Assembly: GCA_050618055.1 (NCBI GenBank)
Contig: JBNLVK010000248.1
Location: 5,788 to 69,787 of the forward strand
Reading direction: 5' to 3'
Origin: Myxococcota bacterium
GTDB lineage: Bacteria > Myxococcota_A > UBA9160 > SMWR01
Length of the DNA stretch: 64,000 bases
The notes under the pieces were generated by a model. It was given only the letters and a program-made list of their open reading frames with translations, made no database searches and was not told where the DNA came from. The position numbers and the translations under genes were made by a program. Shown here piece after piece: positions 28,763-49,516 of this stretch (the stretch's first letter is position 1; the number at the start of each line of letters is the position of its first letter).

Positions 28763-28766
28763 GCCC

Positions 28767-29420: not shown

Positions 29421-29429
29421 CCCGAAGGG

Positions 29430-34564: not shown

Positions 34565-36019
34565 ATGGTAAGTAGCACGGCCCCCGCCGAGACCTCGGTC
34601 CCCCGGGCGCTGCCGGTCTGGGGCGTGGCTCGCGTCTGGCTGCGGCACCTGCTCTCGCTCTACATCCCGGCGGTCAGCCTGGGCTTCCTCTACACCGGGC
34701 CCCACGTCTGGTACCTGGCCATCCCCTGGATGTTCCCCCTCGTGGTGGCCCACCAGCTCGACTGCGCGCCCTGGTCCGAGCGGCGCCAGCCCGACGAGAC
34801 CCTGCCCGACTGGCCCTTCGACCTGCTGGTCTACGTGCTGGCCGGCCTCCAGCTCTGGATCGTGGCGGCGACCGTCGAGCTGTTCACGCGCCAGGCCGTC
34901 TTCTCGGTCGACATGGCCATGGTGCTGCTGCTGGTGGGTGGCGCCTCGGGCTTCTCGATCATCACCGCCCACGAGCTGATCCACCGCAAGCGCAAGGCCG
35001 AGCAGTGGCTCGGCCGGCTGCTGCTCTCGACCGTGCTCTACGAGCACTTCTACACCGAGCACCTGCGCGGTCACCACGTGCGCGTGGGCACGCCCGCCGA
35101 TCCGGCGACGGCGCGCTTCGGCGAGTCGTACGAGCCGTTCTTCCGCCGGACGGTGCCGGCCCAGTTCCGCAGCGCCTGGCGCCTCGAGGCCCGCCGCCTG
35201 GGCGACGAGGACATGCCGCTCCTCGACCCGCGCCACCTGCGCAACCGGGTGCTTCACGGGCTGGTCTTCGAGTGGGGCCTGGCCTTCGGCGTGCTCTTCG
35301 TGTTCGGCGTGCCGTCGTTCGTGGCCTTCCTGCTGCAGGCCTTCATGGCGGTGCGGCTGCTCGAGGCGGTGAACTACTTCGAGCACTGGGGCCTCCAGCG
35401 ACGCGCCGCCCGGGTGCGGCCGGTCGACTCGTGGGACACCCACAGCGCCTTCACCTACTACGGGCTGGTGGGGCTCTCGCGCCATGCCGACCACCACGCC
35501 TGGCCGGCGCGCCCCTACCCGCAGCTGCGCGTCTTCGACGAGGCGCCGCTGCTGCCCATCGGCTACGTGGGGCTGGTCGACCAGGTGATGGCCCAGAACC
35601 AGGAGTTCATGCACACGGCCACCGACGAGCTGGCGCGGCGCCGGCTGGGTCCGTTCACCCCGGAAGAGGGCGAGCCGACCACGCCGCTCGCCCGCGACGA
35701 GGCGCGCGCGAAGCTGGCCGAGGCCCAGCGCGCCGAGGCGTCGAAGAAGCCGGCGCGCAAGAGCCGCCTGCGGCTCTGGCACGTGCTGCTGGGGATCGTG
35801 CTCTTCACGGCGCTGGGGGCCCACCTGGAGAGCGGGGGCATGCCGTTGCTGGCCCGGGTGGCGCTGCACGGCTGGATCCTGGCGGTGGTGGCCCTGGTGA
35901 TCTGGATGCAGCGCCGCATCCGCGAGCACCTCGACTACGAAACCCTGGCCTTCGGCGTGGGCTTCGCGGTGATGATTGCACTGGGCCTGCTGACCGACGG
36001 GGTGCTGGCGGCCCTCTGA
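34565..36019 (+). CDS. AlkB-type integral-membrane diiron hydroxylase (alkane 1-monooxygenase / fatty-acid desaturase superfamily) with extra C-terminal TM region
   Basis: His boxes HELIHR, EHLRGHH and LSRHADHH in canonical order, plus NYFEHWGL. About 100 extra C-terminal residues with two hydrophobic segments. Confidence 0.85.
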   Translation: MVSSTAPAETSVPRALPVWGVARVWLRHLLSLYIPAVSLGFLYTGPHVWYLAIPWMFPLVVAHQLDCAPWSERRQPDETLPDWPFDLLVYVLAGLQLWIVAATVELFTRQAVFSVDMAMVLLLVGGASGFSIITAHELIHRKRKAEQWLGRLLLSTVLYEHFYTEHLRGHHVRVGTPADPATARFGESYEPFFRRTVPAQFRSAWRLEARRLGDEDMPLLDPRHLRNRVLHGLVFEWGLAFGVLFVFGVPSFVAFLLQAFMAVRLLEAVNYFEHWGLQRRAARVRPVDSWDTHSAFTYYGLVGLSRHADHHAWPARPYPQLRVFDEAPLLPIGYVGLVDQVMAQNQEFMHTATDELARRRLGPFTPEEGEPTTPLARDEARAKLAEAQRAEASKKPARKSRLRLWHVLLGIVLFTALGAHLESGGMPLLARVALHGWILAVVALVIWMQRRIREHLDYETLAFGVGFAVMIALGLLTDGVLAAL

Positions 36020-36069
36020 GCCGCTCCCGGCCCCTCAAGGGCCACGCCGGGCCGGCCGACCCAGCCTGC

Positions 36070-36612
36070 ATGGACCCGAAGACCGATCGCGGCAGCGCCG
36101 TCGACCTGCGCGACCTGCGGGCCGACGCCCACGCGCTGTCGGCCGAGGCCTTCGAGGACCGCCACGGCAGCGCCTTCCTGCTGCTCACGGCCGCCGAGCT
36201 CAGCGTGCCGTCCGGACCGTCCACCACCCAGGTGCGGCTGCTCGACGACGAGGAGCACCCGTGCGAGTCGACCGCCAGCCTTTCGCTGGTGGCCTTCCCG
36301 GTGCGCCGCACTGGCCGCTCGGTGGGCCACCTGGTGACGATCGGCCGCGCGTCGAACAACGACCTGGCCGTGCCCGACGTCAGCATCTCCCGCTTCCACG
36401 CCTTCCTGAAGGTGGGCGCGGACGGCGCGTGGCAGATCCAGGACGCAGGCTCGACCAACGGCACGACGGTGAACGGCGACCATGTCCCGCAGCAGGGCCA
36501 CGGAGCCGCCGTCTCGCTCAAGGCCGGCGACACCGTGCGCTTCGGTCAGGTGGAGCTCACGTTCCTGGGCGCGGCGGAGATGCAGGGCTTCGTGAAGAAG
36601 CTCGAGCGCTAG
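36070..36612 (+). CDS. FHA domain-containing protein
   Basis: FHA core VTIGRASNNDLAVPDVSISRFHAFL...IQDAGSTNGTTVNG...GDTVRFG. Confidence 0.85.
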   Translation: MDPKTDRGSAVDLRDLRADAHALSAEAFEDRHGSAFLLLTAAELSVPSGPSTTQVRLLDDEEHPCESTASLSLVAFPVRRTGRSVGHLVTIGRASNNDLAVPDVSISRFHAFLKVGADGAWQIQDAGSTNGTTVNGDHVPQQGHGAAVSLKAGDTVRFGQVELTFLGAAEMQGFVKKLER

Positions 36613-39600
36613 CGGTCGCACCCGCCGGTCGCTCGACCCGGTAGCGGTACCCCGCGGCGAACGGACCCGTGAGCACGCTGGTCTCACCGGTCGACCAGCG
36701 GATCTCCACGCGCGAGACGCTCTCGTGCAGGCCCAGGCCGAAGTGGGCGATCGGCGCGTCGAAGGAGACGTAGCCGCCGCCGGCCTTGATCTCGCGCATC
36801 TGCCGGCGCTCGCCCCCGGCGCCGTAGTGCACGTCGATGCGGCTGCCCACGCCGAAGCGGTTGCCGCGGTGGTCGACCAGCTCGAAGGCGAGGGCGTGGC
36901 CGTCGCCGCCCCGGTTCTCGTGCAGCCAGAGCGGCCCATCGGTGTTCGACGTCACCAGGTCGAGATCGCCGTCGTTCTCCAGGTCGAAGGCCACCCAGCC
37001 CAGGGCGTCCAGGTGGCTCTTCAGCCCCACCTCGCTGGTGGCGTTCTCGAAGCCGCGGCCCGCGAGGTTGCGGTAGTAGAGGTTCGACTCGCGCTTCTCC
37101 GAGCTGAAGAAGCCGTTCACCAGGTAGAGGTCCTGCCACTCGTCGTTGTCGAAGTCGGCGAACCTGGCGTTCCAGGTCCAGCCGCCCACGTGGATGCCTA
37201 GGTCGCGCGCCCGGTCGGCGAAGGTGCCGTCGGGCTGGCGCACCAGCAGGAAGTTGCGGCCCCGGTCCTGGCGGATCGCCTGGCGCCGCGGCATGCCGTC
37301 GTCCGAGGGCTTGCGGAAGTGCTGCTGGCAGACGAAGGACAGCGGCTCCCAGTGCCCGGGAATGCGCCGGCACTCCTCGATGTCGTTCCGGCGCAGCGCG
37401 TAGAGCATCATCGTGTAGGCCACGCAGTCGCCGCGGTCGACCGGGTTCGCGATGGAGAGACACACGCTGGCGTCGCCCTGGCGGCGCGCGTCGCGCAGGG
37501 TGGCGTGGGCGCGCATGTTGGACTCGCAGCGCTCCTTCCAGTCGGCGTCGCTGTGGTCGTCGCAGACCTGGTCGGTCTCCACCTGGTAGCCCTCGAGCGT
37601 CTCGTTGGGGCGCCGTCCGGTGATCTGCCCGATGTAGAGCTCGGGCACGCCGTCGTTGTCGATGTCGGCGGTGTCGAAGCTCATGGTGGAGTCGCCGGAG
37701 CGGGGGATCACGCCGTCGTTGCGCAGCGACGGCTCGAGCCGGCGCCCGCCGGCGCCGAAGTAGAAGTCGTCCGCCACCTCCTTGAAGCCGTTGCCGACCA
37801 TCAGGTCGAGGAGCCCGTCGCCGTCCAGGTCGGAGAGCAGGGTGGTGAGCGTCTCACCCGGCGTGCCCGGCAGCGGCACCGCCGTGTAGCCCCCGGCGTC
37901 GGCGTAGAGCACCTGGTTGCGCGACGCCTCCGGCGGCTCGGCGGTCCAGCGACCCGAGGTCCAGTTGCCGAGCACCACGTCCAGGCGGCCGTCCCGGTCG
38001 ATGTCGCCAAAGGCCATGGCATCCGCCAGGTTGGCGTCGGTTTCGTGAAGCGGCTCGAGCTTCTCGGCCGAGAAGCGGCCGCCCTGGTTCCAGAGCACGT
38101 GGTTGCCGCTCCGGTAGGCCGAGAACACGACGTCGAGCCAGCCGTCGTCGTCCAGGTCCACCAGCGCCGCGTTCCCCACGAACAGCTCTTCCAGCGCCGG
38201 CGCCGCCAGGTCCTGGCGGGCGAAGCGTCCGTCGCCCAGGTTCGCGTAGAGCTGCGGACCCCGATCCGAGCCCACCAGCACGTCGACGTAGCCGTCGCCG
38301 TGCACGTCTCCGGCGGCGATCGGCCAGTTGCTGAAGAAGGGCCGCTGGAACTTGTAGAGCGGCGGCATGCTGTCGATGCGCTCGAGGCCCACCGTGTCGC
38401 CGTAGCGGGTGTCGAAGAGCGGTCCGTCGCCCGCCCGGCGCGGGGCGAAGGCCGTGCGCGAGACGCGCAGGCCGTCGGCGTCGGCCAGCGGGGCCGGCTC
38501 GAACGCCGGCGCGTGGGCGCGCAGGGCCGGCAGCAGGTCGTCGGCCGGACGCGGCGGAGCCACCGGGCGCGGGTCGGGTCGCGGCGGTGGCGGGGCGTCG
38601 CGCAGCGCGGCGAAGACCGCGAGCTGACGCGCGCCGTCGCGGCGCTCGAGCTGCTCGGCGGCGATGCCGAGCCCCACCGAGAGCGCCAGCAGCCCCACCG
38701 AGAGCGTCGCCGCCACGCGCAGCGACGCCGCCTGCCAGACGATCAGGAAGGAGTAGACGCTGAAGATGCCCAGGCTGAACAGCAGCACCATCACGTAGGC
38801 GGTGGGCATGCCGGCGGCCAGCAGCGCGGCCGAAACCACCACGTCGAAGGCGATCGGCACCGGCAGCAGCAGACCGAAGAGCGCGACCCCGACCATCCAG
38901 CCGTAGGCGAGCCAGCTCTCGTCGCGCGGCAGCGACGCCACCAGCACGTCCCAGGGCAGGACCGTCACGGCGACGGCGCCGATCAGCCCGGCGGCCAGCA
39001 TCAGCGGCACCGTGTTCTTCACGATGAACCAGAGGTTCCCGGCGAAGTCGCGCGCCACCCAGACCAGCGCCTGGCCGAAGCCCTCGGACGTCTCGAAGAG
39101 CGGCTCGTCGAGCGCGCGCCCCTGACCGGTCGGCACGTCGGCCAGCTGCGACGGATCCACCCCGGCCAGCCGCTCCCGGCGGAACACGAACCTCGCCAGC
39201 AGCGGCAGCACGATCAGGGTGAAGGCCAGCCCACCGCCCAGCTTCAGCAGCACGAGCTGGGTGGGGAACATGGCGAACATCATGCCCACCACCACGAAGT
39301 TGAGCGTCGGCGAGCTGATCATGGCGGCCAGCGACGTCTCGAGGCGCAGCCCCGAGGCGTGCATGCCGCGGGCGATGGGCGCGGCGCAGTTCACGCACAC
39401 GCCCAGCGGCGCGCCGATCAGCACGCCGAGCAGCGAGTTCGAGAACGAGCCGCGGAAGCCGCTGCGCCCGATGCGGCGGAAGAGCGTCATGAAGCCGGCG
39501 GCCAGCAGCAGGCCGAAGGTCATGCCGCGCTGGTTGGTGGAGATCCAGTTGAGCGTGGTCTGGGCGACGCGCACCAGCGGCGGATCCAGCTCGTCCACCT

Positions 39601-39766
39601 GGGCCAGGGCCTCGAAGCCCAGCGGATCCTCCAGCACCACGCCGCCGCCCATCGAGGCCTTCTCGTTCAGGTTCGGGTAGCGCGAGCCGGACCAGAAGGT
39701 GACGGCGATGCCCAGGCACAGCAGGGCGGCCAGCAGTGCGCGACGGTCGCGAAGGAGGGGGCCCAA
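36557..39766 (-). CDS. Fusion protein: N-terminal ArsP_1/DUF318-type permease + FG-GAP/VCBS repeats + ASPIC/UnbV (CRTAC1-like) domain, paralogue 1
   Basis: TTG 39766 is the only start in frame, 9 nt after the upstream stop. Permease motif GAPLGVCVNCAAPIARG and ~8 TM segments in residues 1-330. Multiple D-x-D-x-DG blades (DLDDDGWLDVV, DIDRDGRLDVVLG, DLDGDGLLDLMVG, DIDNDGVPELY, DFDNDEWQDLYL). UnbV block AGGGYVSFDAPIAHFGLGLHESVSRVEIRWSTGE. Confidence 0.85.
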   Translation of the reverse strand: MGPLLRDRRALLAALLCLGIAVTFWSGSRYPNLNEKASMGGGVVLEDPLGFEALAQVDELDPPLVRVAQTTLNWISTNQRGMTFGLLLAAGFMTLFRRIGRSGFRGSFSNSLLGVLIGAPLGVCVNCAAPIARGMHASGLRLETSLAAMISSPTLNFVVVGMMFAMFPTQLVLLKLGGGLAFTLIVLPLLARFVFRRERLAGVDPSQLADVPTGQGRALDEPLFETSEGFGQALVWVARDFAGNLWFIVKNTVPLMLAAGLIGAVAVTVLPWDVLVASLPRDESWLAYGWMVGVALFGLLLPVPIAFDVVVSAALLAAGMPTAYVMVLLFSLGIFSVYSFLIVWQAASLRVAATLSVGLLALSVGLGIAAEQLERRDGARQLAVFAALRDAPPPPRPDPRPVAPPRPADDLLPALRAHAPAFEPAPLADADGLRVSRTAFAPRRAGDGPLFDTRYGDTVGLERIDSMPPLYKFQRPFFSNWPIAAGDVHGDGYVDVLVGSDRGPQLYANLGDGRFARQDLAAPALEELFVGNAALVDLDDDGWLDVVFSAYRSGNHVLWNQGGRFSAEKLEPLHETDANLADAMAFGDIDRDGRLDVVLGNWTSGRWTAEPPEASRNQVLYADAGGYTAVPLPGTPGETLTTLLSDLDGDGLLDLMVGNGFKEVADDFYFGAGGRRLEPSLRNDGVIPRSGDSTMSFDTADIDNDGVPELYIGQITGRRPNETLEGYQVETDQVCDDHSDADWKERCESNMRAHATLRDARRQGDASVCLSIANPVDRGDCVAYTMMLYALRRNDIEECRRIPGHWEPLSFVCQQHFRKPSDDGMPRRQAIRQDRGRNFLLVRQPDGTFADRARDLGIHVGGWTWNARFADFDNDEWQDLYLVNGFFSSEKRESNLYYRNLAGRGFENATSEVGLKSHLDALGWVAFDLENDGDLDLVTSNTDGPLWLHENRGGDGHALAFELVDHRGNRFGVGSRIDVHYGAGGERRQMREIKAGGGYVSFDAPIAHFGLGLHESVSRVEIRWSTGETSVLTGPFAAGYRYRVERPAGATASARASSRSPASPPRPGT

Positions 39767-39775
39767 CGCGGTGGC

Positions 39776-40594
39776 TCAGAGCAGGCGCAGCGCCATGGCG
39801 TCGTAGCGGTCCTGGAGGGCCTGCATGCCCTCGGGCATCTCGATGCGGTGCGGCGTGTACCAGGGCGTGTAGGTGGGAAGCACCCGGGCCAGCAGCTTCG
39901 GAGCGCGCGTCCGGATCTGCTCCCAGGCGCGCCGCCGGCGTCCCGCCGCACCGCCGTGGCGCTCGAGCAGGCCGCGGTCGGCGCCCAGCATGTAGCGCTG
40001 CGCGCGCAGGCACCAGCGCAGCATGTGCCATTGGGCGAACAGGCCCACCCGCAGCCGGTAGAGGTAGTCGCCCACCACGTGCTCGTAGACGTCGAAGGCC
40101 ACGGTGCGGTGCTCGAACTCCTCCACCAGGTGCCAGGTGTAGAGCTCGCGCAGGGCCGGGTGCATCTCGTCCATGCCCCTCTCGAACGACACGCGCGCCA
40201 TGGCGGTGGTGAAGGCCTCGAAGCCTTCGGCGTAGGCCAGGTTGAAGCGGAGCGCCTTCTCGCGGCTGAAGCGCTGGTAGTCGTCGTCCAGGTCCTTCTC
40301 GATGGCCAGCAGCTCCGGGAAGCCCTGCGCCCTCACGATCTCGTTGAAGCGCGCGTGCTGCTTGTAGTGCTGTCCCTCCTGGGCGTTGAACTTCCCCAGG
40401 TCCTCCAGCAGCGCCTCGTCGGTGACGTGGCGGCGCGCCTCCTTCATGGTGCGAATGAGGTAGGGCTCGAGGTACGGCAGCAGCAGCGAGAAGGCGAGGA
40501 AGAAGAACGACTCCTCCGGCTTCCCGGGTACGACCACCGGGTCCATGTCGTCGGGGAACGCGAGGCTCATCTGACGAACGGTGATCGTGTCCAT
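39776..40594 (-). CDS. PF10118-like 'predicted metal-dependent hydrolase' (helical, E..H motifs)
   Basis: ATG 40594 with GGAGA upstream. Blocks FFFLAFSLLLPYLEPYLIRTM, FNAQEGQHYKQHARFN and HLVEEFEHRTVAFDVY match my recollection of that family. Confidence 0.75.
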   Translation of the reverse strand: MDTITVRQMSLAFPDDMDPVVVPGKPEESFFFLAFSLLLPYLEPYLIRTMKEARRHVTDEALLEDLGKFNAQEGQHYKQHARFNEIVRAQGFPELLAIEKDLDDDYQRFSREKALRFNLAYAEGFEAFTTAMARVSFERGMDEMHPALRELYTWHLVEEFEHRTVAFDVYEHVVGDYLYRLRVGLFAQWHMLRWCLRAQRYMLGADRGLLERHGGAAGRRRRAWEQIRTRAPKLLARVLPTYTPWYTPHRIEMPEGMQALQDRYDAMALRLL

Positions 40595-40632
40595 GCGGCG
40601 TCTCCGAGTGTCCCCTGCGGGCTCCGGCCCCG

Positions 40633-43600
40633 TCAATCCCGGCGGATGCGGTAGCGGTGGCCGGCCTCGAAGGGGCCGCGCAGGCGCGTCGCCTCGCCGG
40701 TCGGCCAGCGGACCTCCACCTCGTCCACCCGCGCGTGCGGTCCCAGCCCGAAGTGGACCCGCGGCGCGTCGCTGGAGACGTAGCCGCCGCCGGTCTTCAG
40801 CTCGCGGAGCTGGGAGAGGCCGTCGCCGTAGGCGATGCGCACCCGGCTGCCCACGCCGAAGTGGTTGCCGCGGGCGTCGGCCAGCTCGAAGACGACGGCG
40901 TGTCCGTCGCGGGTCTGGTTGCGGTAGACCCACAGCGGACCGTCGAAGGTGGCGGTCACGATGTCGAGGTCGCCGTCCAGGTCGAAGTCGACGTAGACGT
41001 AGGCGCCGGCCGTGAGGTAGCTCTCCAGGCCCGACGTCGCGGTCTCGTCGTCGAAGCCCTGACCCTGGCGGTTGCGGTAGAAGTAGTTCGACTCGCGCCG
41101 CTTCGACGCGTAGAAGCCGTTGGCGATGTAGAGGTCCTGCCACTGGTCGTTGTCGACGTCGGCGAAGCGGGCGGTCCAGCTCCAGCCGCCGCGCACCACG
41201 CCCAGCGCCTTGGCGCGATCCTCGTAGCGTCCGTCCGCGCCGCGCACCAGCAGCACGTTGCGGTTGCGCAGCTGGCGGATGCCGCGCTTCTCCTCCTTCT
41301 TCGAGCCGGCCTGGGGCTCGAAGCCCAGCCGGCACAGGTGGGCCAGGCCGCTCCAGCGGGGCGGGAAGGCGTCGCAACGCGACGCGTCCCGGTCGTCGGT
41401 CAGCGTGAAGCGCAGCATGGCGAAGGCGATGCAGTCGGAGCGCCGGGTGCCGTCGGCGATGGACAGGCAGCTGATGGCGCCCGCGCGCCGGCGCGCCGCG
41501 CGCAGCGTGTCGTGCAGGGCCATGCGCTCCTCGCAGCGTTCGCGCCAGGCCGGGTCGTCGTGCTCCCGGCAGACGTCCTCCACACCGCGGGCGAGGTCCT
41601 GCGACGAGCCCCGCGGACTGCGCGCCACCTGGGCGATGTAGACCTCGAGGTCGCCGTCGTTGTCGACGTCGGCCGAGTCGATGCTCATGGTGTTGGCCGT
41701 GGAGGCGGGGATCACGTCGTCCTTGCGCGTCAGCTTGCGCAGCTTCCCCTCCGGACCGCCCCAGTAGAAGTAGTCGGGCGTGGCGAAGTCGTTGCCGATC
41801 AGCACCTCCGGGTGTCCGTCGGCGTCCAGGTCCGAGACCAGGCTCGACAGGGTCTGGCCCGGATCGCCGGGCAGCGGCTCGACCGCGAAGTCGTCGCCGC
41901 GGCTGCGCAGCAGGAAGTTCCGCGAGCGCTCCGGCGGGCGCATCGACCAGGAGCCGCCGGTGTAGCCGCCGAGCACCACGTCGAGGCGGCCGTCCGCGTC
42001 CAGGTCGCCGAAGGCCACGCCGTTGGCGATGGTGGCCGGCACCTCGGGAAGCTCTCGCACCGCGTCCTGCGGGAAGCGTCCGCCGCGGTTGTGCAGCACG
42101 TGGTTGCCCTCGCCGATGGTCGATACGAACACGTCGAGCCAGCCGTCGTCGTCCAGGTCGACCAGCGCCAGGTTGGCCGCGTGGGAGCGCCCGGCGGTGG
42201 GCTGCGCGATCTCCTGGAGCACGAAGCGCTCGCCGCCCAGGTTCGCGTAGAGGAAGACGCCCTGGTCCGAGCCCACCACCAGGTCGGGCCAGCCGTCGCC
42301 GTGGACGTCGCCGGCGGCGACGGGCCAGGCCCGGTACCAGGGGCTCGTGAACTTGTAGGCCAGCGGCACGTGGTCCGGCCGGACCAGGCCGAAGGCCTCG
42401 CCGTAGTGGCGGGCGAACGTGGGCTCGCCGGCGCCGACCGGCGGGGCGAAGGCGCTGCGCTCGACGGCAACGCCCGGCGGCGCGGTGACGGCGAAGGGCT
42501 CCCAGCGGCGGGCGGCGTCGCCCAGCGCCGGCAACAGCGCGTCCGCCGACTGCGCGTCGGGCAGCGTCGGTGCGGGCAGCGTCTCGGCGTCGGCCAGCCC
42601 GGCGAACAGGGCCAGCTGCCGCGATCCGTCCCAGGCCTCGTAGCGCTGCGCGGCCACGCCCAGGCCCACCGACAGCACCAGCAGGCAGAACGACAGCGTG
42701 GCGGCGACGCGCAGCGAGACCGCCTCCCACACGACGAGGAACGAGTAGATGCTGAAGATGCCCAGGCTGAACAGCAGCACCATCACGTAGTGGCCCGGCA
42801 TGCCGGCCCCGAACAGGGCCGCCGCCAGCACCACGTCGAAGGCGATGGGTACGGGCAGCAGCAGGCCGAAGGCGGCGATGGCGACCATCCAGCCCACGGC
42901 GTTCCAGGAGTCGTCGTGGGGAAGGGCGGCCAGCAGCGTGTCCCAGGGAAGCAGGGTCACGGCCAGGGCGCCCAGGGCGCCGGCCAGCAGCATCAGCGGC
43001 ACCGTGTACTTCACGATGAACCACAGGTTCTTCGCGAACTCGCGCACCAGCCAGAGCGCGGCCTCGCCGAAGCCCTGCGATCGCTCGAAGAGCGCCTCGT
43101 TTGCCGCCGGCCCCAGACCCTCGCCGGCGGCGGCCAGCCGGCTCGCCTCGACGCCGGCCCGCACCTCGCGCCGGAACACCAGGCGCGACAGCAGCGGAAT
43201 GCCCGCCACCACGAACACCAGGCCGGTCACCACCTTGAAGGCGGCCATGTAGGCCGGCAGCATCGAGAAGAGCATCGCCAGCACCACGAAGTTCAGCGTC
43301 GGCGAGCTGATCATGGCCGCCAGCGACGTCTCCAGGCGCGTGCCGGCGGCGTGCAGTCCGCGGGCGATGGGCGCCGCGCAGTTCACGCACACGCCGAGTG
43401 GGGCTCCGATCACCACGCCCAGCAGGGTGTTCGAGAAGGCGCCCTCGAAGCTGCGCCGCCCGAGCCTTCGCAGCAGCGTCATGAAGGCGGCCGCGAGCGC
43501 GATGCCGAAGATCATGCCCCGCTGGTTCGTCGACACCCAGTTGATCGTGGTGTCGAACAGGCGGACGCCGAAGCGGTCGGCCGGGTCGACGGGCCGCGCC

Positions 43601-43767
43601 GCCTCGAAGCCCAACGGATCTTCCAGGATCGTGCCGCCGCCCATGGCGGCCTTCTCGCCCAGGTCCGGGTAGCGCGAGCCCGACCAGAACGCGACGGTGA
43701 TCAGCAGGCACAGCAGCGCGGCCAGCAGGGCGCGCTCGTCGCGCGCGATGTCACCCAGGGCTCCCAT
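40633..43767 (-). CDS. Fusion protein: ArsP_1/DUF318-type permease + FG-GAP/VCBS repeats + ASPIC/UnbV domain, paralogue 2
   Basis: ATG 43767. Colinear with 36557..39766 over the whole length, with the same motifs GAPLGVCVNCAAPIARG, SLAAMISSPTLNFVV, DLDDDGWLDVF, DLDADGRLDVVLG, DVDNDGDLEVY. Ends in TGGGYVSSDAPRVHFGLGPHARVDEVEVRWPTGE. Confidence 0.85.
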   Translation of the reverse strand: MGALGDIARDERALLAALLCLLITVAFWSGSRYPDLGEKAAMGGGTILEDPLGFEAARPVDPADRFGVRLFDTTINWVSTNQRGMIFGIALAAAFMTLLRRLGRRSFEGAFSNTLLGVVIGAPLGVCVNCAAPIARGLHAAGTRLETSLAAMISSPTLNFVVLAMLFSMLPAYMAAFKVVTGLVFVVAGIPLLSRLVFRREVRAGVEASRLAAAGEGLGPAANEALFERSQGFGEAALWLVREFAKNLWFIVKYTVPLMLLAGALGALAVTLLPWDTLLAALPHDDSWNAVGWMVAIAAFGLLLPVPIAFDVVLAAALFGAGMPGHYVMVLLFSLGIFSIYSFLVVWEAVSLRVAATLSFCLLVLSVGLGVAAQRYEAWDGSRQLALFAGLADAETLPAPTLPDAQSADALLPALGDAARRWEPFAVTAPPGVAVERSAFAPPVGAGEPTFARHYGEAFGLVRPDHVPLAYKFTSPWYRAWPVAAGDVHGDGWPDLVVGSDQGVFLYANLGGERFVLQEIAQPTAGRSHAANLALVDLDDDGWLDVFVSTIGEGNHVLHNRGGRFPQDAVRELPEVPATIANGVAFGDLDADGRLDVVLGGYTGGSWSMRPPERSRNFLLRSRGDDFAVEPLPGDPGQTLSSLVSDLDADGHPEVLIGNDFATPDYFYWGGPEGKLRKLTRKDDVIPASTANTMSIDSADVDNDGDLEVYIAQVARSPRGSSQDLARGVEDVCREHDDPAWRERCEERMALHDTLRAARRRAGAISCLSIADGTRRSDCIAFAMLRFTLTDDRDASRCDAFPPRWSGLAHLCRLGFEPQAGSKKEEKRGIRQLRNRNVLLVRGADGRYEDRAKALGVVRGGWSWTARFADVDNDQWQDLYIANGFYASKRRESNYFYRNRQGQGFDDETATSGLESYLTAGAYVYVDFDLDGDLDIVTATFDGPLWVYRNQTRDGHAVVFELADARGNHFGVGSRVRIAYGDGLSQLRELKTGGGYVSSDAPRVHFGLGPHARVDEVEVRWPTGEATRLRGPFEAGHRYRIRRD

Positions 43768-43821
43768 CGGGCCGTACCCTGACCGCCCGGGAGCCCGGCT
43801 GCAAGCCTCGCGACCGGGGGG

Positions 43822-45990
43822 TCAGGACCCGGGGGACCAGGGGAGGGCGGCCGGGGCCTCCGCGTCGGGCAGCTCCTGCCAGTCGATGCCGTCGCCGGCC
43901 GGGACGGGCGCCTCGGGCTCGGGCAGGTCGCAGCGGGCGTACGGGATCTCGCTGTTGCGGCGGGCGTGGAAGACCTTGGCCCCCACGCGCTTCAGCATCA
44001 GCGTGAGGCCCTGCTCCTGGTCCAGCGAGATCGGCACCTCGTAGGCCGGCGTGCTGTCGATGCGCAGCTGGTAGTCGCCGCCCGGCAGGCGCAGGGGCTC
44101 GGGGCTGCCCAGGGTGCCGGTGGCCAGGGTGCGACCTTCCTGGAGCACGGCGAAGGGCGTGCCCACCGTGGTGGCCAGCGCGTCGCGCAGCTCCTCGGCG
44201 CTGCCGGCGGTGACGAAGCGTCCGCCCGTGGCGGCGGCGATGGCCCGCAGGCTGGCGAGATCCACGTCGCCCTCGCCGTCGAGCCCGAAGCCGATCACGT
44301 GCACCGGGATCGTGCCCGTGCGCTGGAGCTCGCGGGCGGCGGCGATCGGGTCGCCGTCGCAGCTCTCGATGCCGTCGGTCACCAGCACCACGGCGCGCTC
44401 GCCGCGGAAGCTGCCCAGGTCGGCCTGGATCTGGCGCAGGGCGTAGGCGATGGGCGTCTGGCCGCGGGGCTTGAGCCCGGCCATGGCCTGGCGGACCGCG
44501 TCGCCGCCGGCGCGGGTCGGCGGGACCAGCAGCTGCGAGTCGTGGCAGTCGCGCCTGGCGTGGGGCCGCTGGTGGCCGTAGGCGCGCAGGGCCAGCGACA
44601 CGTCGTCGGGCAGGGCGACCAGCGCCTCGGACAGGGTGCGCTGGGCGACCGTGATCTTGGGCTCGCCCTGCATGCGTCCCCACATGCTGTTCGAGGCGTC
44701 GAACACGATCTCGATGGCGCGGTCCGACAGCGAGATGGCGGGCTCCTCGCCGCGCATGGCCTCGATCTGGAGCTCGGCGCAGCCGGGCGCGCGCGCTGCC
44801 ACCACCACCTGGTCGCGGGCCGTGCGGCCGTCGACGCTGGTGGCGATCGCGGTCAGCCGGTGCTCGCCGTCGCCGAGCGGCACGTGGCCCTCGAAGCGGC
44901 CCCCCGAAAGGACCGTCGGCAGCAGCTCGCCGTCGTCCACCTGGAGCCAGACCTCGCGGACGCCGGCGTCCGCCGGCTCGGCACCGATCTCCTCGAGCGC
45001 CACGTCCCAGGTGCTGGCGCTGCCCTGCACGAGCAGCGGAGCCTCGTCGGCCGGATGCTCGCTGCCGTCGGCCGGCGTCGCGATCGAGACGCGCAGCGGA
45101 CCGGACAGCACCACGTCCACGTGGGTGCGGGCGATCTCCCCGTCCAGGCTCGTGGCGGTGGCCTCGATGCGGTTTCGTCCGGGCCGCAGCGTCACCGGCG
45201 CGGTGAACGATCCCCCCACCAGGTGCGCCGTCACCGGCGGCTGGTCGCCCACGCGCACGCTCACCCGGTCGACGCCGGTGGTGCGCAGGGTCAGGAAGGC
45301 GTCGGCCAGGCGGGTCGGGTCGGTCACGGCCGCGAAGCTGGCGTCGGTGCCGTCTGCGATCTGGCGCAGCAGGGCCTCGCCCTCGTCGACGTCGCCCAGC
45401 AGCAGGGTGTGGACGGCGACGCCGGCCGCGCGGGCCTCGCGCGCGGCCTCGAGGGCCTTCTTCTCGTCCGACTTCCCGTCGGTGAAGAGCAGCGCCACCT
45501 TGGACGCGCCGGGGCGCCCGCGCTCGGCGAAGCCGGACAGGGCGGCGCGGATGCCGGCGGCCAGGTCGGTCTCGCCCTTCTGGTCCAGGGTCTCGAGCGC
45601 GGCGACCACCGCCGAGCGGTCCGGCGTGAGCGGCTGGAGGAGCGTCGCCTTGCGGTCGAAGTCGACCACGCCCACGTGGATGTTGGCCTTGGGGTGGAGG
45701 CTGCGCACCAGGTTCACGACGCCGCGGGTGCGGTGGTCGTCGCGATCGGTGCGGCGCAGGCTCTCGGAGCTGTCGAGCACCAGGAACAGGTCGAGGGCCG
45801 ACACGCCCCCGTAGATCGAGGCGCCGCCGACGACCTCCAGCCGGGCCTGGTCGGGGCCGACCACCCGGCCGGCGGTCGGCTCGTGGATCTCGACCGAGAG
45901 GCGTCCCTCGGCGCGGGCGCCGCCCGAGAGCGGCAGGAGTCCGACGAGCGCGAGCAGCCCGGCGGCGAGCAGGCGGAAACCGGTGTGCAT
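43822..45990 (-). CDS. Secreted protein with two von Willebrand factor A domains separated by Ig-like region
   Basis: Signal peptide MHTGFRLLAAGLLALVGLLPLSGGARA. Two MIDAS motifs (LVLDSSESL and IVFDASNSM), each followed by VWA-like beta-alpha pattern (LFTDGKSD, LVTDGIESCDG). Confidence 0.85.
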   Translation of the reverse strand: MHTGFRLLAAGLLALVGLLPLSGGARAEGRLSVEIHEPTAGRVVGPDQARLEVVGGASIYGGVSALDLFLVLDSSESLRRTDRDDHRTRGVVNLVRSLHPKANIHVGVVDFDRKATLLQPLTPDRSAVVAALETLDQKGETDLAAGIRAALSGFAERGRPGASKVALLFTDGKSDEKKALEAAREARAAGVAVHTLLLGDVDEGEALLRQIADGTDASFAAVTDPTRLADAFLTLRTTGVDRVSVRVGDQPPVTAHLVGGSFTAPVTLRPGRNRIEATATSLDGEIARTHVDVVLSGPLRVSIATPADGSEHPADEAPLLVQGSASTWDVALEEIGAEPADAGVREVWLQVDDGELLPTVLSGGRFEGHVPLGDGEHRLTAIATSVDGRTARDQVVVAARAPGCAELQIEAMRGEEPAISLSDRAIEIVFDASNSMWGRMQGEPKITVAQRTLSEALVALPDDVSLALRAYGHQRPHARRDCHDSQLLVPPTRAGGDAVRQAMAGLKPRGQTPIAYALRQIQADLGSFRGERAVVLVTDGIESCDGDPIAAARELQRTGTIPVHVIGFGLDGEGDVDLASLRAIAAATGGRFVTAGSAEELRDALATTVGTPFAVLQEGRTLATGTLGSPEPLRLPGGDYQLRIDSTPAYEVPISLDQEQGLTLMLKRVGAKVFHARRNSEIPYARCDLPEPEAPVPAGDGIDWQELPDAEAPAALPWSPGS

Positions 45991-46091: not shown

Positions 46092-47597
46092 ATGTCCAGA
46101 CCGCCCCAGCACGATCCCGATCGCGACAGCGACGCGCCCCCGGCCGAGTCCCCGGCCACACCGCGTGAACGCGAGCGGCGGGTCGAGTCGGAGTGGCTCC
46201 ACGAGGTCCACGACCTGCTGGGCAGCGAGCGGAAGCCGCGCCCCCGACGGCCTCCCCAGCGCAGGCGGGCCGCCGTCGGACCGCGGGTGGTGGTCTGCGA
46301 CGAGGGCGAGCTCGACGACGTCTGCCAGCTGCTCGGCCGACTGGGCGAGACGCCGCTGCGCCTGCGTCCCGCCGACCTGTCCGAGCTGCGCGACTGGGAG
46401 CGCCCCAGCCGCCTGCTGGTGACACCGGTGCGGGTCGCGCTCTCCGAGAACCTGCCGCTGTCCAACGGCCCGGACGCCAGCGTGTCGATCGCGGTCGCCG
46501 ACAGCGACGCCCAGTCCCAGTGCACGGCCATGCTGCGCCGCGGCTTCGACTACGTGGTGCGCCGGCCGGTACACCCCGAGGCGCTGCGCCTGCTGGTCAT
46601 GCAGGTACTGTGGCGGGGTCGCGAGCACCGGGGCGTGGCTCGCTTTCCGTTCGGCGCCGACATCCGCTGGCGCCAGGGCCTGCACACCGGTCGCTGCACG
46701 ATGATCGAGATCTCGGCCCACGGCTGTCGACTGATGACCCGCCAGCCGTTCAAGCTGGGCGATCGCATCCACCTGCGCGTGCCGGCCGCGCTCACCGGAT
46801 CGCGCAGCCTGCGCCTGCGGGGCCGCGTCGTGCGGCGCGATCGGCTGACGAGCGACGGCGGTCCGGAGCCGCGGGTGGCCGTGCAGTTCGAGCGACTCTC
46901 GGCGCGCAACGTGGCCCACCTGGACGCGCTGCTCGCGGAGCGCGCCAGCGGTCCGGCGGTGATGGGCGGAGACCCGGCGGCCGGCGGGCTGCGCCGCGAG
47001 CTCGGTCGGCGGCGCTCCGGCTTCCTCAGCCTGGGCCAGAGCGAGGAGCCCGAGGCGGCGGAGCCGCCCCAGGCCCAGGCGCCGGATCTCGAGCGGCGCC
47101 GCCAGCCGCGGGGCGCCTGGCCGCACGAGCTGGTGTCGCTGGATCGGGAGACCGACCGGGTGCTCCACACGCTGCTCGGCTCGGACCTGTCGGTGGGCGG
47201 CGTGCGCGTCGAGCCGAACCCGCTGCTGCGCCTGGGCGACCGGCTGCGTCTCGCCCTCTACGACGCCGGCAGCGCCGAGCCGCTGGTGGTCGAGGCGCGG
47301 GTGGCCCACGACGGCGGTCGCTCCGGTGTCGGCCTGGTGTTCCTGGATCCGCCCGACGCGATCCGCGAGCGGCTGCGCGCCATGGTCGAGTCGTTGCCGC
47401 CGGTGTCCTCGCTGTCGAAGGACGACGCGAAGCCCGAGGGTGTGGTGCTGGGCGAGATCATGACCACCGGGACCCTGCCCGGCGCCGCCTCAGCCGCCGG
47501 CCAGGACGATGCGCGACAGGCCGAGCACGGCGATGGCGCAGCCGAGCACCACGACGAAGAAGCCGAGCCCGCCCGCGACGAACCAGCGCAGGACTGA
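46092..47597 (+). CDS. Receiver-like domain + two PilZ domains protein (putative c-di-GMP receptor)
   Basis: N-terminal pseudo-receiver pattern (VVVCDEGELDD ... LRRGFDYVVRRPVHPEALRLLV). PilZ 1: REHRGVARF ... MIEISAHGCRL. PilZ 2: ERRRQPRG ... GSDLSVGGVRV. The acidic low-complexity tail overlaps the convergent gene. Confidence 0.8.
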   Translation: MSRPPQHDPDRDSDAPPAESPATPRERERRVESEWLHEVHDLLGSERKPRPRRPPQRRRAAVGPRVVVCDEGELDDVCQLLGRLGETPLRLRPADLSELRDWERPSRLLVTPVRVALSENLPLSNGPDASVSIAVADSDAQSQCTAMLRRGFDYVVRRPVHPEALRLLVMQVLWRGREHRGVARFPFGADIRWRQGLHTGRCTMIEISAHGCRLMTRQPFKLGDRIHLRVPAALTGSRSLRLRGRVVRRDRLTSDGGPEPRVAVQFERLSARNVAHLDALLAERASGPAVMGGDPAAGGLRRELGRRRSGFLSLGQSEEPEAAEPPQAQAPDLERRRQPRGAWPHELVSLDRETDRVLHTLLGSDLSVGGVRVEPNPLLRLGDRLRLALYDAGSAEPLVVEARVAHDGGRSGVGLVFLDPPDAIRERLRAMVESLPPVSSLSKDDAKPEGVVLGEIMTTGTLPGAASAAGQDDARQAEHGDGAAEHHDEEAEPARDEPAQD

Positions 47598-47855
47598 GCG
47601 GCGCTCCCCTTCCAGGAGCTGGATGTGGAGCGCCACCGGGTGGATCCACCAGCGCCCGGGCAACGGCCCGTGCGGACGCAGCGCCCGGTAGAGCGCGACG
47701 TGGTACCAGAAGCCGGTGGGGACGCCGACTGCCAGGCCCGCGGCGGTGACGATGCCGCCGGCCTGGAGCAGCACGTCGGGCGGCACCAGGGTGCCCGCCA
47801 GCGTGGCGCCGCCCAGCAGCGCGAGGGTGCCCAGGACGAGCAGGGTCTCGATCAC
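47490..47855 (-). CDS. Hypothetical small membrane protein (about 4 hydrophobic segments)
   Basis: MIETLLVLGTLALLGGATLAG..., GIVTAAGLAVGVPTGFWYHVALY, FVAGGLGFFVVVLGCAIAVLGL. Composition is unlike the shadow ORFs. No family recognised. Confidence 0.45.
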   Translation of the reverse strand: MIETLLVLGTLALLGGATLAGTLVPPDVLLQAGGIVTAAGLAVGVPTGFWYHVALYRALRPHGPLPGRWWIHPVALHIQLLEGERRSVLRWFVAGGLGFFVVVLGCAIAVLGLSRIVLAGG

Positions 47856-48540: not shown

Positions 48541-48581
48541 ATCGCTGAACCCCCTCTGTATGCGATGGCTGCTTCAGCGAT
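48541..48581. promoter_or_regulatory. Perfect 9-bp inverted repeat ATCGCTGAA-N23-TTCAGCGAT in a 290-bp divergent intergenic region
   Basis: Read directly: 48541-48549 atcgctgaa and 48573-48581 ttcagcgat. The surrounding region 48440-48720 is visibly less GC-rich. Confidence 0.3.
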
Positions 48582-48721
48582 CGGCAGGCCGGGCCCCGAA
48601 CTTTTGGGTCTTCTTCGGAAAAATCCGCTCGGCCGGGCAGCCCTGCCCCGGGGGGCCGCGGTTGCCGGCGGGCCGGGGCCCCCATAGCCTTTGGCCCTTC
48701 GAACCGCGGAAGGAGGGGGAC

Positions 48722-49516
48722 GTGGAGCGGAACTACGTGCGTGGGGTGCGCCTGGCTGCACTGGTGGCCTTCGCCTTGTCGACGACGGCCTGCGTGATCA
48801 TCGAGGACGGCGAGGTGGGCGTCCTGAAGAGCTTCGGCGCGATCTCGGACGAGCCGGTGGGGCAGGGGGTCTCGTTCCAGATCCCGGTGGCCCGCCAGAT
48901 CGAGACCTGGAACGTGAAGCTCCAGGAGATCAAGGAGACGGCCCAGGTGCCGTCGTCCGAGGGCCTGATCGTGGGCCTCGACGCCTCGCTGTTGTTCCGG
49001 GTGCGCGCAGACAGCGCTCCGCTGATCCGCAAGACGATCGGCTGGAACTACGTCGATCGCGTGATCACGCCCTACTTCCGCAACGGCCTGCGCGACGTGG
49101 TCAGCGGCTACCAGGTGAAGAACATCTACGCCGAAGAGGGCCGCCGCGAGATCGCCGCCAAGCTGAGCGAGTTCCTGAAGACCAACCTGGAGCCCAATGG
49201 CATCGACGTGGTCGACGTGCTGCTGCGCGACGTGAAGCTGCCCCAGCGCTTCCGCGAGAGCATCGAGGCCAAGCTCACCGCCGAGCAGAAGGTGGCCCAG
49301 AAGCAGTTCGAGCTGGAGCAGGCGAAGAAGGAGGCCGAGATCGAGATCGCGCGGGCCGAGGGTGCCGCCAAGGCCCAGGAGATCGTGCGCTCGACCCTGT
49401 CGGACTCGTACCTCTCGTACCTGTGGATCAAGACGCTGAACGAGAACCCCAACGTGATCTACGTGGCGACCGAGGCGAACATGCCGCTGTTCCGCACGAC
49501 GATGGGGCAGAAGTAG
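48722..49516 (+). CDS. SPFH/Band 7 (prohibitin/HflC-like) domain protein
   Basis: GTG 48722 after strong RBS GGAAGGAGGGGGA. N-terminal anchor, then EDGEVGVLKSFG, LLFRV, and coiled KLTAEQKVAQKQFELEQAKKEAEIEIARAEGAAKAQEI. Confidence 0.9.
   Translation: MERNYVRGVRLAALVAFALSTTACVIIEDGEVGVLKSFGAISDEPVGQGVSFQIPVARQIETWNVKLQEIKETAQVPSSEGLIVGLDASLLFRVRADSAPLIRKTIGWNYVDRVITPYFRNGLRDVVSGYQVKNIYAEEGRREIAAKLSEFLKTNLEPNGIDVVDVLLRDVKLPQRFRESIEAKLTAEQKVAQKQFELEQAKKEAEIEIARAEGAAKAQEIVRSTLSDSYLSYLWIKTLNENPNVIYVATEANMPLFRTTMGQK

Follow-up and report, generated by a model that had tools for sequence, protein, structure and literature searches.

YraQ/ArsP-type permeases fused to CRTAC1-like propellers as candidate envelope transporters in a lineage-specific mosaic gene cluster

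Four adjacent genes in a Myxococcota genome raise the question of whether they encode one conserved envelope device, and of what is done by the two proteins among them that join a permease to a propeller. The window (the whole stretch of 64,000 nucleotides analysed) carries four co-directional minus-strand open reading frames for a double-VWA protein, two large fusion paralogues (F-A and F-B) and a PF10118 protein, at exactly the positions given by the initial annotation (Table 1). The gaps between them measure 54, 38 and 9 nt, and the three large genes have a GC3 of 0.95-0.97. The cluster is flanked on both sides by plus-strand genes, a divergent one for a PilZ-domain protein and a convergent one for an FHA-domain protein, the latter overlapping the 3' end of the F-B gene by 56 nt. 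An operon scan was uninformative, returning no promoter-like site and one terminator-like site, on the non-coding strand; the four genes are probably co-transcribed. The remaining neighbours in the window are sugar-nucleotide and housekeeping genes, and a T2SS or pilus locus was rejected as a description of the wider window, in which only a lone MshEN-T2SSE ATPase was present.

Table 1 Positions of the genes and protein features discussed, numbered within the window.
Feature	Position (nt)	Strand	Basis or remark
FHA-domain gene, 182 aa, convergent	36070..36612	+	tblastn to L086 FHA protein
F-B, second permease::propeller paralogue, 1069 aa, TTG start	36557..39766	-	Pfam, 56% identity to F-A
F-B C124-V-N-C127	39386..39397	-	counterpart of F-A CVNC
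PF10118 ('Metal_hydrol') protein, 272 aa	39776..40594	-	Pfam E 4e-53
F-A, YraQ/ArsP-type permease + CRTAC1-like propeller, 1044 aa	40633..43767	-	Pfam, AF2, Foldseek
F-A propeller + UnbV/ASPIC, residues 430-1044	40636..42480	-	Pfam, AF2, Foldseek, PDB sequence match
F-A membrane domain, residues 1-389	42601..43767	-	9 TM helices (1+4+4)
F-A C127-V-N-C130 motif, break of TM3	43378..43389	-	invariant in 86 homologues
Double-VWA protein, 722 aa, secreted	43822..45990	-	signal peptide + Pfam
PilZ-domain protein, divergent	46092..47597	+	Pfam PilZ, 2 stretches

The proposed covalent fusion of a permease to a propeller was confirmed by Pfam and AF2, with PF03773, PF13517 and PF07593 found in one chain in both F-A and F-B. 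PF03773 (ArsP_1) matched F-A with E 2e-12 (47.1 bits) and F-B with E 4e-12 (46.3 bits) against a cut-off of 32.3, covering positions 21-292 and 51-290, respectively, of the 294 in the model. PF13517 (FG-GAP_3) matched six stretches of F-A and four of F-B (E 4e-37 and 2e-33), and PF07593 (UnbV_ASPIC) matched the two large proteins with E 1e-18 and 8e-15. As claimed, the paralogues align over their full length (56% identity over ~1050 residues), and both carry the motif GAPLGVCVNCAAPIARG...SLAAMISSPTLNFVV. F-A is an exact match to a protein from a Myxococcota MAG (P0001), and its AF2 model was confident as a single rigid body (pLDDT 90, pTM 0.89). The N-terminal segments are hydrophobic as the annotation had noted, but its count of about eight did not hold, the model containing nine TM helices arranged as 1+4+4. 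Topologies of 4+4 or 1+4+4 are those of the ArsP family (PMC7176098).

Four of the F-A helices are broken, at G125-C127, S154-T157, L304-A309 and ~335-339, and these breaks coincide exactly with invariant residues. The motif C127-x-x-C130-A-A-P, invariant in 86 homologues, aligns with C-T-C-C-A-A-P of Klebsiella YraQ, the profile alignment setting GVCVNCAAPIA of the fusion opposite MCTCCAAPVA; CxxCAAP is thus common to the fusions and YraQ, which upholds the cysteine motif as a family signature. F-B retains every family-invariant residue, including both cysteines. The membrane-domain profile matched Klebsiella YraQ over the 4+4 core with E 4.6e-18, and tblastn against enterobacterial YraQ gave 27% identity over 84% of the domain. 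Weak NCBIfam matches were to the SO_0444 Cu/Zn efflux family and SaoE, and a DUF318/arsP relative has a zinc-stress phenotype in Shewanella (bioRxiv 10.1101/072470). Among the Foldseek matches to the fusion model, a list filled by propellers, no solved transporter structure appeared as a counterpart of the membrane domain. Judged by its sequence, the membrane half is a member of the PF03773 YraQ/ArsP-type permease family.

The C-terminal part carries D-x-D-x-DG Ca-type motifs (five sites in F-A, four in F-B). Murine CRTAC1 (9etn_A) was the top Foldseek match for F-A (E 4.1e-19, TM 0.64 normalised to target), and CRTAC1 9etn was also the sole PDB sequence match by phmmer, over F-A residues 867-1026 (E 1.3e-15); integrin-like fungal GlcNAc lectins, aldos-2-ulose dehydratase and, among the top matches, integrin alpha-V propellers were likewise retrieved. 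A helical insert of ~110 residues (~720-830) in the F-A propeller contains six Cys that are invariant or at least 90% conserved. The K/R counts fit an N-in/C-out topology with K/R-rich loops on the N-terminal side, although in the window protein the 54-residue central loop is rich in Arg, which makes the positive-inside call slightly less clear. The predicted periplasmic location of the propeller is supported, indirectly, because split propeller halves found in other genomes carry their own signal or anchor sequence; together with the six conserved Cys, these variants bear out the claim that the propeller is extracytoplasmic.

The initial annotation had called the fusion unusual. This was contradicted by database searches, in which 378 species-representative genomes from seven phyla encoded a relative and all of the 120 best matches (120/120) showed the identical three-domain architecture. 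At E<1e-30 the membrane domain gathered ~385 clusters at 50% identity, most of them ~1000-1100 aa long, and the phmmer reach of the fusion subfamily was 843 of 1.84 billion representatives. Its view that no system of this type has been characterised stood up, as the database and literature searches turned up no characterised homologue or paper; nothing functional was found in the literature for the UnbV-permease fusion, PF10118, bacterial CRTAC1 or YraQ/UPF0718. We know of no transport assay for any member of the fusion subfamily or for YraQ, and to our knowledge no bacterial function is known for either of two orphan families, the YraQ/UPF0718-type permeases, of which E. coli has one, and the bacterial CRTAC1-like FG-GAP/UnbV propellers. 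The fusion is therefore a widespread, uncharacterised protein family. Tandem paralogues recur at two other loci (L002 and L039), and carriers in culture, some with the gene on plasmids, include Maricaulis maris DSM 4734, Leisingera sp. NJS204, Phaeobacter and Tateyamaria omphalii.

Eight species genomes carry the gene in two parts, divided directly behind TM9: a full permease gene is retained beside a propeller gene whose start encodes a hydrophobic signal or anchor sequence of its own. A selenocysteine or read-through explanation for the in-frame stop was rejected: the stops are TAA or TAG, and ATG or GTG and the signal or anchor sequence come after them, which shows the genes to be truly split. 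Seven of the eight split loci sit behind a TonB-dependent receptor, a link restricted to this subgroup, which may be a single clade. The presence of the fusion in hundreds of species and the adjacency of the two genes when split constitute Rosetta-stone evidence for joint work across the inner membrane.

Most likely the fusion functions as a secondary transporter to which a capture domain in the periplasm is tethered, and we give an even chance to the full reading in which F-A and F-B are such inner-membrane transporters encoded in a lineage-specific mosaic cluster. They would belong to the YraQ/ArsP type (PF03773, TC 2.A.119) and have a cytoplasmic N-terminus, and the invariant CxxC together with Asn, Ser, Thr and Asp at the breaks of the four discontinuous helices would form the translocation site. 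The last helix would lead through a linker to the periplasmic CRTAC1-like FG-GAP propeller and UnbV domain, which Ca2+ and disulfides would stabilise. Joined covalently to the permease, the propeller would serve as its receptor or capture domain and would hand its ligand to the permease or take it from the permease; in the split variants, an outer-membrane receptor, a periplasmic protein and an inner-membrane permease may form a chain. As the ligand, our first guess would be a thiophilic metal or else a metal-peptide chelate. A transport function, the direction and substrate of that transport, and any link to the VWA protein are what we infer here; several carriers are cultured and some of the genes lie on plasmids, so the hypothesis is directly testable.

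The genetic contexts of the fusion were heterogeneous. In alphaproteobacteria a T2SS, Sel1 and two unknown secreted proteins lie beside it in 22-32 loci, and by tblastn the alphaproteobacterial partners Sel1, p6 and p7 had no match in the window or its relatives. Elsewhere it adjoins NRPS, lasso-like RiPP and FecR/DUF3179 genes, contexts compatible with a peptide or metallophore cargo. On a Leisingera plasmid it lies within an EPS locus with a Wza-like export protein, yjbF/H, NodZ and sugar-nucleotide enzymes, and neighbours at other loci include GT8, sulfotransferase and ALGX/GDSL genes. No ars genes were found in the window or in ~90 related loci. Given this heterogeneity no single substrate is indicated, and a role in cell-surface polymers fits equally well. 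It is conceivable, though unlikely, that the propeller does the work itself, as a periplasmic lectin or enzyme that is anchored in the membrane and acts on exopolysaccharide or on polymers that are secreted or lie at the surface, with the permease as an anchor or a supplier of a metal cofactor. The likeness of its fold to fungal GlcNAc lectins, aldos-2-ulose dehydratase and CRTAC1 would suit such a role, as would the EPS and glycan-related neighbours, the alphaproteobacterial T2SS with its secreted proteins, and, at a distance of 13-16 kb in the window, the genes for PGM/PMM and GDP-mannose dehydratase. However, conservation within the fusion is highest in the membrane domain, whose invariant polar and Cys residues at helix breaks would be unexpected in a mere anchor, the split variants retain the full permease gene, and the propeller yielded no catalytic motif.

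Whether the four genes form a conserved system was decided by comparison with relatives, and the order VWA/fusion/PF10118/fusion was absent from those examined. Among the closest relatives, two loci (L083 and L084) hold PilZ, VWA, one fusion and FHA genes and lack PF10118, whereas two others (L086 and L087) hold PilZ, VWA, PF10118 and FHA and lack the fusion; the closest relative, with ~75% amino acid identity across the locus, has VWA-PF10118 and no fusion gene. The PilZ gene is syntenic in all four, the neighbour at the FHA position in relatives is annotated FHA/Yop-YscD_cpl, and the window FHA protein is 77% identical over its full length to that of L086 (tblastn). Because PilZ and FHA both remain in L086 and L087 without the fusion gene, they belong to the backbone of the locus, and the PilZ gene is part of this local backbone, not of the context of the fusion family. 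The conserved local backbone would thus comprise the PilZ, double-VWA and FHA genes, with the fusion genes and PF10118 as variably present cargo. In 82 loci outside these myxobacterial relatives, searched in all ORFs with phmmer and custom HMMs at E<0.01, neither VWA nor PF10118 had a match, and the two were rejected as conserved fusion partners. The four-gene cluster is a lineage-specific mosaic and not a conserved system, and the PF10118 and VWA genes of this window should not be annotated as fusion-system components.

The PF10118 protein matched its Pfam model with E 4e-53 and 181 bits (cut-off 33.2), residues 6-248 covering positions 2-243 of 247, and was modelled by AF2 as an all-alpha bundle (pLDDT 94). 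Its invariant columns are E43, E73xxH76, H80, E123, H155, E159xxH162 and H190. The bundle and these E/H residues point to a probable di-metal carboxylate protein, which is probably cytoplasmic, as it has no signal peptide and a single weak hydrophobic stretch. Ferritin-like di-metal oxidases (R2lox, RNR R2, the aldehyde-deformylating oxygenase ADO and CmlI) share with PF10118 the all-alpha bundle and the pattern E...ExxH...E...ExxH, but the Foldseek matches to them were weak (E 0.05-0.5, TM 0.40-0.47, none <=0.001) and the protein had no match among PDB sequences. Over 1800 homologues of it stand alone in settings that are unrelated, and it would be a ferritin-like di-metal enzyme of the cytoplasm that is not generally linked to the fusion. 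Separately, kinship with the DUF455 proteins that adjoin fusions in RiPP-like clusters was rejected (hhalign probability 0.3%); such kinship would have meant a recurrent link between the fusion and a di-iron protein.

These results make it improbable that the four proteins constitute one dedicated envelope device for transport or sensing, built from the double-VWA protein, a fusion heterodimer and PF10118. The tight co-directional arrangement with gaps of 9-54 nt and no coding-strand terminator-like site between the genes, the adjacency of VWA to the fusion in L083/L084 and to PF10118 in L086/L087, and the tandem paralogues seen elsewhere would all be expected of such a device. Against this stand the relatives that keep VWA-PF10118 without a fusion or one fusion without PF10118, the eighty other species loci with neither partner, and the stand-alone, probably cytoplasmic nature of PF10118.

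The double-VWA protein is, as had been claimed, secreted and equipped with two MIDAS-containing VWA domains. Behind a signal peptide (residues 1-27), VWA1 (~67-230), Ig-like/Glucodextran_B-like beta domains, VWA2 (~425-606) and a C-terminal beta domain follow one another, with two Pfam PF00092 stretches (E 4e-30) and intact DxSxS motifs in both VWA domains (D73SSES and D431ASNS); PDB matches were to the VWA domains of anthrax-toxin receptor and BatB. Its orthologues are 75% identical in L086/L087 and 58-66% in L083/L084. It would be a periplasmic or secreted MIDAS protein for which contact with the propeller is possible, either way. As a long shot, the fusion may represent a transporter class that is new to the envelope: a YraQ-type permease would have a CRTAC1/integrin-like Ca2+ propeller built in as its periplasmic receptor, the split form would supply the stages in periplasm and inner membrane that follow a TonB-dependent receptor, and in this myxobacterial clade the double-MIDAS VWA protein would dock on the propeller like an integrin beta-I domain. 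If true, this would be a bacterial integrin-like head mounted on a transporter, and would give a first function to the orphan YraQ/UPF0718 family and to bacterial CRTAC1-like proteins.

It is very improbable that the fusion is a transmembrane sensor in which the permease-like domain passes the binding of ligand or Ca2+ by the propeller on to c-di-GMP/FHA signalling in the cytoplasm. The PilZ and FHA genes on either side in the window and its relatives, and a GGDEF-EAL gene directly downstream of the fusion in four gammaproteobacterial loci, would suit a sensor; yet PilZ and FHA stay in place where the fusion is missing, signalling genes are absent from most contexts, and the fusion has no cytoplasmic output domain, its cytoplasmic loops spanning merely 5-13 residues. 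A defence system was rejected, as the PADLOC models had no match for the four proteins, PilZ or FHA.

Compared with known systems, the preferred transporter reading draws on several partial likenesses. The genes alone recall the integrin alpha/beta head, where an FG-GAP propeller is paired with a MIDAS betaI/VWA domain as the propeller gene here lies beside a double-MIDAS VWA gene, but the VWA gene persists without the fusion in L086/L087 and is absent from 80 other fusion loci. With the YraQ/UPF0718 and ArsP permeases (PF03773 ArsP_1/DUF318; TCDB 2.A.119, TOG superfamily), the fusions have in common a full-length Pfam match and the 1+4+4 TM layout, and with YraQ the first-repeat CxxCAAP and a proline-rich break in the second repeat. 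They nevertheless form a distinct, divergent subfamily, nearly all members of which are fused to, or encoded beside, a ~650-residue propeller predicted to be periplasmic. ArsP exports trivalent organoarsenicals (PMC6205960), whereas the fusions have no ars-operon context and nothing points to arsenic. CRTAC1 (cartilage acidic protein 1, PDB 9etn) and the bacterial CRTAC1 family/ASPIC-UnbV proteins share the FG-GAP/VCBS propeller, UnbV_ASPIC and DxDxDG motifs; CRTAC1 is soluble or secreted, as are its usual bacterial relatives, while the fusion propeller is tethered to a 9-TM permease and, compared with CRTAC1, carries the extra ~110-residue helical insert with six Cys. Finally, the order of TonB-dependent receptor, permease and signal-peptide propeller in the split variants is akin to the chains of outer-membrane receptor, periplasmic binding protein and inner-membrane permease. 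No TonB receptor adjoins the window genes, and where those uptake chains employ a Venus-flytrap binding protein, the system described here would employ a propeller and a YraQ-type permease, mostly in one polypeptide.

F-A and F-B, the two permease–propeller fusion paralogues of the window, were each found by Pfam to contain PF03773 (ArsP_1), PF13517 and PF07593 in one chain, as the initial annotation had expected. The ArsP_1 matches exceeded the gathering score and were near full length, and the two proteins shared 56% identity over ~1050 residues. NCBIfam gave weak partial matches only, to the SO_0444 Cu/Zn efflux and SaoE families. An AlphaFold2 model of the fusion (pLDDT 90, pTM 0.89) and the conservation analysis were based on an alignment of 86 sequences. 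The N-terminal membrane domain has nine membrane helices instead of the approximately eight hydrophobic segments first counted. After TM1 (11-30) come two sets of four helices, a 1+4+4 layout already described in the ArsP family, among other topologies (PMC7176098). Four helices are discontinuous in the model, and their breaks coincide with the family-invariant residues G125-V-C127-V-N129-C130, S154-S-P156-T, L304-P-V-P307-I-A-F-D311 and L335-G-x-x-S339-x-Y341, the pattern that would be expected of a transporter binding site. A profile of residues 1-400 matched Klebsiella YraQ/UPF0718 (E 4.6e-18) across the 4+4 core and placed GVCVNCAAPIA of the fusion opposite MCTCCAAPVA of YraQ, so the cysteine signature that had been read from the sequence alone is a genuine family feature. 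TM9 (352-389) leads through a linker into the propeller (~430-1043), which carries five DxDxDG motifs in F-A and four in F-B, and a helical insert (~720-830) with six cysteines that are invariant or at least 90% conserved. The top fold match was murine CRTAC1 (9etn, E 4e-19), also the sole PDB sequence match, followed by integrin alpha propellers and fungal integrin-like lectins.

Because the chain has nine helices, its N- and C-termini lie on opposite sides of the membrane. K/R counts over the alignment favored a cytoplasmic N-terminus (1.95 for the N-terminus and 2.6 for loop 2, both short segments). The strongest evidence came from eight related loci of other species (L031, L034, L036, L037, L042, L043, L045 and L049), in which a TAA or TAG codon directly behind TM9 divides the fusion gene in two. 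The resulting genes share one frame, with the single stop codon followed by 0-4 codons before the propeller ORF, which starts with ATG or GTG and encodes a hydrophobic signal or anchor sequence of its own. Export of the propeller follows from this, and its suggested extracytoplasmic position was borne out indirectly. The fused and split forms constitute classic Rosetta-stone evidence that permease and propeller work together. F-A and F-B are most likely YraQ/ArsP-type secondary transporters to which a periplasmic capture domain is covalently tethered; the CxxC/Asn/Ser/Asp site would move the substrate and the propeller would deliver it to the permease or receive it.

To assess the spread of the family, the fusion was searched against 5.8 billion proteins. 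The best 120 matches all had the same three Pfam domains and ~1000-1100 aa, and were named merely 'FG-GAP-like repeat-containing protein' or 'YraQ (UPF0718)'. In a species-representative genome collection, 378 stretches coded for a relative, from Alpha- and Gammaproteobacteria, Myxococcota, Planctomycetota, Nitrospirales, Acidobacteriota, Bacteroidota and Rhodothermales; among the cultured carriers are Maricaulis maris, Robiginitomaculum antarcticum, Pelagimonas phthalicica and Sulfitobacter. Plasmid-borne homologs occur in cultured Roseobacter-group strains (Leisingera, Phaeobacter sp. G2, Tateyamaria omphalii, Roseovarius faecimaris, Tropicibacter oceani and Parasedimentitalea marina). Of 1.84 billion representatives, the membrane domain alone reached 385 clusters (50% identity) at E<1e-30 and just 843 at E<1e-3, and most of its best 150 matches had ~1000-1100 aa, with a few of 367-394 aa. 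The family is thus a compact, divergent YraQ-like subfamily, nearly always joined to a propeller. The architecture is thus common, contrary to the earlier view that it is unusual. That no characterized system of this kind was known still holds: literature searches for functional studies of the fusion family found none.

The genetic context was surveyed in 80 species loci, whose neighbors were clustered all-against-all and named by Pfam. In Alphaproteobacteria, the fusion belongs to a module with two Sel1-repeat proteins (32 loci) and two unknown secreted proteins, p6 (~156 aa, 29 loci) and p7 (~396 aa, 25 loci), whose gene order is shuffled across bacterial orders; in 22 loci the module is embedded in or adjoins a type II secretion cluster (GspD/E/G/K, prepilin peptidase). 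A TonB-dependent receptor gene lies directly upstream in seven of the eight split loci, often with a TPR-sulfotransferase gene. A lasso-peptide-like set (Asn-synthase-like, PqqD, HPr-kinase-like (ScmC), DUF455 in 2-3 copies, NTP_transf_5), with sulfotransferase genes also adjoining, was found in 8 of the 80 species loci and in L002, spanning Proteobacteria, Bacteroidota and Acidobacteriota; among the loci with this set are L002, L010, L032, L035, L044, L071 and L082. NRPS or AMP-ligase genes are neighbors in six loci, and one fusion gene lies in an exopolysaccharide locus on a Leisingera plasmid, with NodZ and yjbF/H. All these contexts are envelope- or secretion-related, without convergence on one substrate. 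A role centered on the propeller, in surface polymers, is an alternative that we consider unlikely. The window has no partner from these other contexts; for Sel1, p6 and p7, tblastn gave no match.

The four genes first described in the window, encoding the secreted double-VWA protein, F-A, the PF10118 protein and F-B, have exactly the coordinates initially assigned, with gaps of 54, 38 and 9 nt. The G+C content of the window is 70-76%, and GC3 of the three large genes is 0.95-0.97. Three proteins of a Myxococcota MAG, on a contig of 89,366 nt, are exact matches to proteins of the window. A coding-strand scan between the four genes found no terminator-like site, and co-transcription is plausible. 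F-B starts with TTG 9 nt behind the PF10118 stop codon and in the same frame as that codon. The FHA gene had been masked in a mechanical ORF list by a longer frame, 35005..36612. The MshEN–T2SSE ATPase and SCO1/SenC genes of the window have no established link to the fusion.

Features of the window and of related loci in other genomes
Feature	Sequence	Positions	Strand	Remarks
VWA	window	43822-45990	minus	722 aa; signal peptide; two VWA stretches (E 4e-30); two intact DxSxS MIDAS motifs
F-A	window	40633-43767	minus	1044 aa; ArsP_1 (E 2e-12), FG-GAP_3 (6 stretches), UnbV_ASPIC
PF10118	window	39776-40594	minus	272 aa; PF10118 (E 4e-53)
F-B	window	36557-39766	minus	1069 aa; ArsP_1 (E 4e-12), FG-GAP_3 (4 stretches), UnbV_ASPIC
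PilZ	window	46092-47597	plus	divergent from cluster; one border
FHA	window	36070-36612	plus	182 aa, complete; convergent with F-B, overlapping its 3' end by 56 nt
Fatty-acid desaturase	window	34565-36019	plus	beyond FHA gene
631-aa protein	window	32647-34542	plus	no Pfam match; 54% identity to L083/L084; shared local backbone
121-aa ORF	window	47490-47855	minus	63-73% identity to relatives; shared local backbone
Band_7/SPFH	window	48560-49516	plus	78% identity to L086; shared local backbone
Lone MshEN + T2SSE ATPase	window	26775-29429	minus	c-di-GMP-binding type; 6-10 kb range from operon
SCO1/SenC copper chaperone	window	29911-30828	plus	6-10 kb range from operon
Split permease gene	L034	2477-3598
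Split propeller gene	L034	3599-5578
Alphaproteobacterial module	L052	about 5000-13045		example from L040-L081
Alphaproteobacterial module	L061	10001-17400		example from L040-L081
Lasso-peptide-like set	L002	14429-21036
Tandem second fusion paralogue	L002	5099-9898		broken into 254-aa N-terminal fragment and 933-aa remainder
IS element (Transposase_mut)	L002	5808-7100		inserted in second paralogue
Exopolysaccharide locus	L090 (Leisingera sp. NJS204 plasmid NZ_CP035420)	126625-134412		Wza-like export protein, p6, p7, hypothetical, NodZ, fusion
DUF3179 and fusion	L085	5201-9510		4-nt overlap; FecR two genes farther upstream
DUF3179 and fusion	L094	5832-10204

The order in the window is Band7–small ORF–PilZ/VWA–F-A–PF10118–F-B–FHA–desaturase. 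Its closest relatives, L086/L087, have Band7–small ORFs–PilZ/VWA (723 aa)–PF10118–FHA–desaturase without a fusion gene, at 62-78% identity per protein (Band7 78%, PilZ 62%, VWA 75%, PF10118 75%, desaturase 73%), and the FHA proteins of the window and L086 share 77% identity along the whole length. The next relatives, L083/L084, have PilZ/VWA (611 aa)–one fusion–FHA–homolog of the 631-aa protein, with a fusion 62-64% identical to F-A and neither PF10118 nor a second paralogue. F-B is nearest to F-A and the L083/L084 proteins (55-56%), which makes it an older paralogue of this clade. In intermediate relatives (47-52% identity) the neighbors differ again, such as DUF3179, FecR and ALGX/GDSL; on two unrelated metagenomic contigs the fusion is directly preceded by a DUF3179 gene. 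VWA and PF10118 were absent from 82 other loci of other phyla or classes (phmmer E<1e-5, custom HMMs E<0.01). The four genes are therefore not syntenic as a system, and the simplest history is that a PilZ/VWA...FHA backbone gained or lost fusion genes and PF10118. The window contains an ordinary member of the fusion family with a lineage-specific duplication. What had been observed was confirmed in full, with the helix count as the one small correction. The permease–propeller fusion, its cysteine signature and the periplasmic propeller survive from the initial interpretation, whereas the four-gene system and the rarity of the fusion do not; a four-part envelope transport or sensing device is improbable, and the system that had made the finding seem exceptional fails to hold up.

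The PF10118 protein was modeled as an all-alpha bundle (pLDDT 94) with invariant E43, E73xxH76, H80, E123, H155, E159xxH162 and H190, an E/ExxH/E/ExxH pattern. Its fold matches were weak (E 0.05-0.5, TM 0.40-0.47) and uniformly di-metal carboxylate proteins (R2lox, RNR R2, aldehyde-deformylating oxygenase, CmlI). The family name 'metal-dependent hydrolase' is probably a misnomer, and a putative oxidase of di-iron or Mn/Fe type would be the likelier assignment. No signal peptide was found in this protein. More than 1800 stand-alone homologs exist (55-75% identity among the best 120 listed), and their settings are unrelated, among them lipid or aromatic catabolism and Minicystis rosea. Kinship to DUF455 was ruled out on comparison. 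The VWA protein is exported and resembles the VWA domains of anthrax-toxin receptor and BatB.

That the fusion serves as a sensor is very improbable beside its reading as a transporter with a tethered capture domain. For this transporter, the leading guess at a substrate, a weak one, is a thiophilic metal or metal-peptide chelate, suggested by the paired cysteines, the kinship at a distance to SO_0444 and ArsP, and the TonB-receptor, FecR, NRPS and RiPP neighbors. The fused/split relation at the family level brings two orphan families within reach of experiments in cultured bacteria. Compared with known kinds, the protein unites a YraQ/ArsP permease and a CRTAC1-like propeller in one chain, a fusion that was itself previously undescribed.
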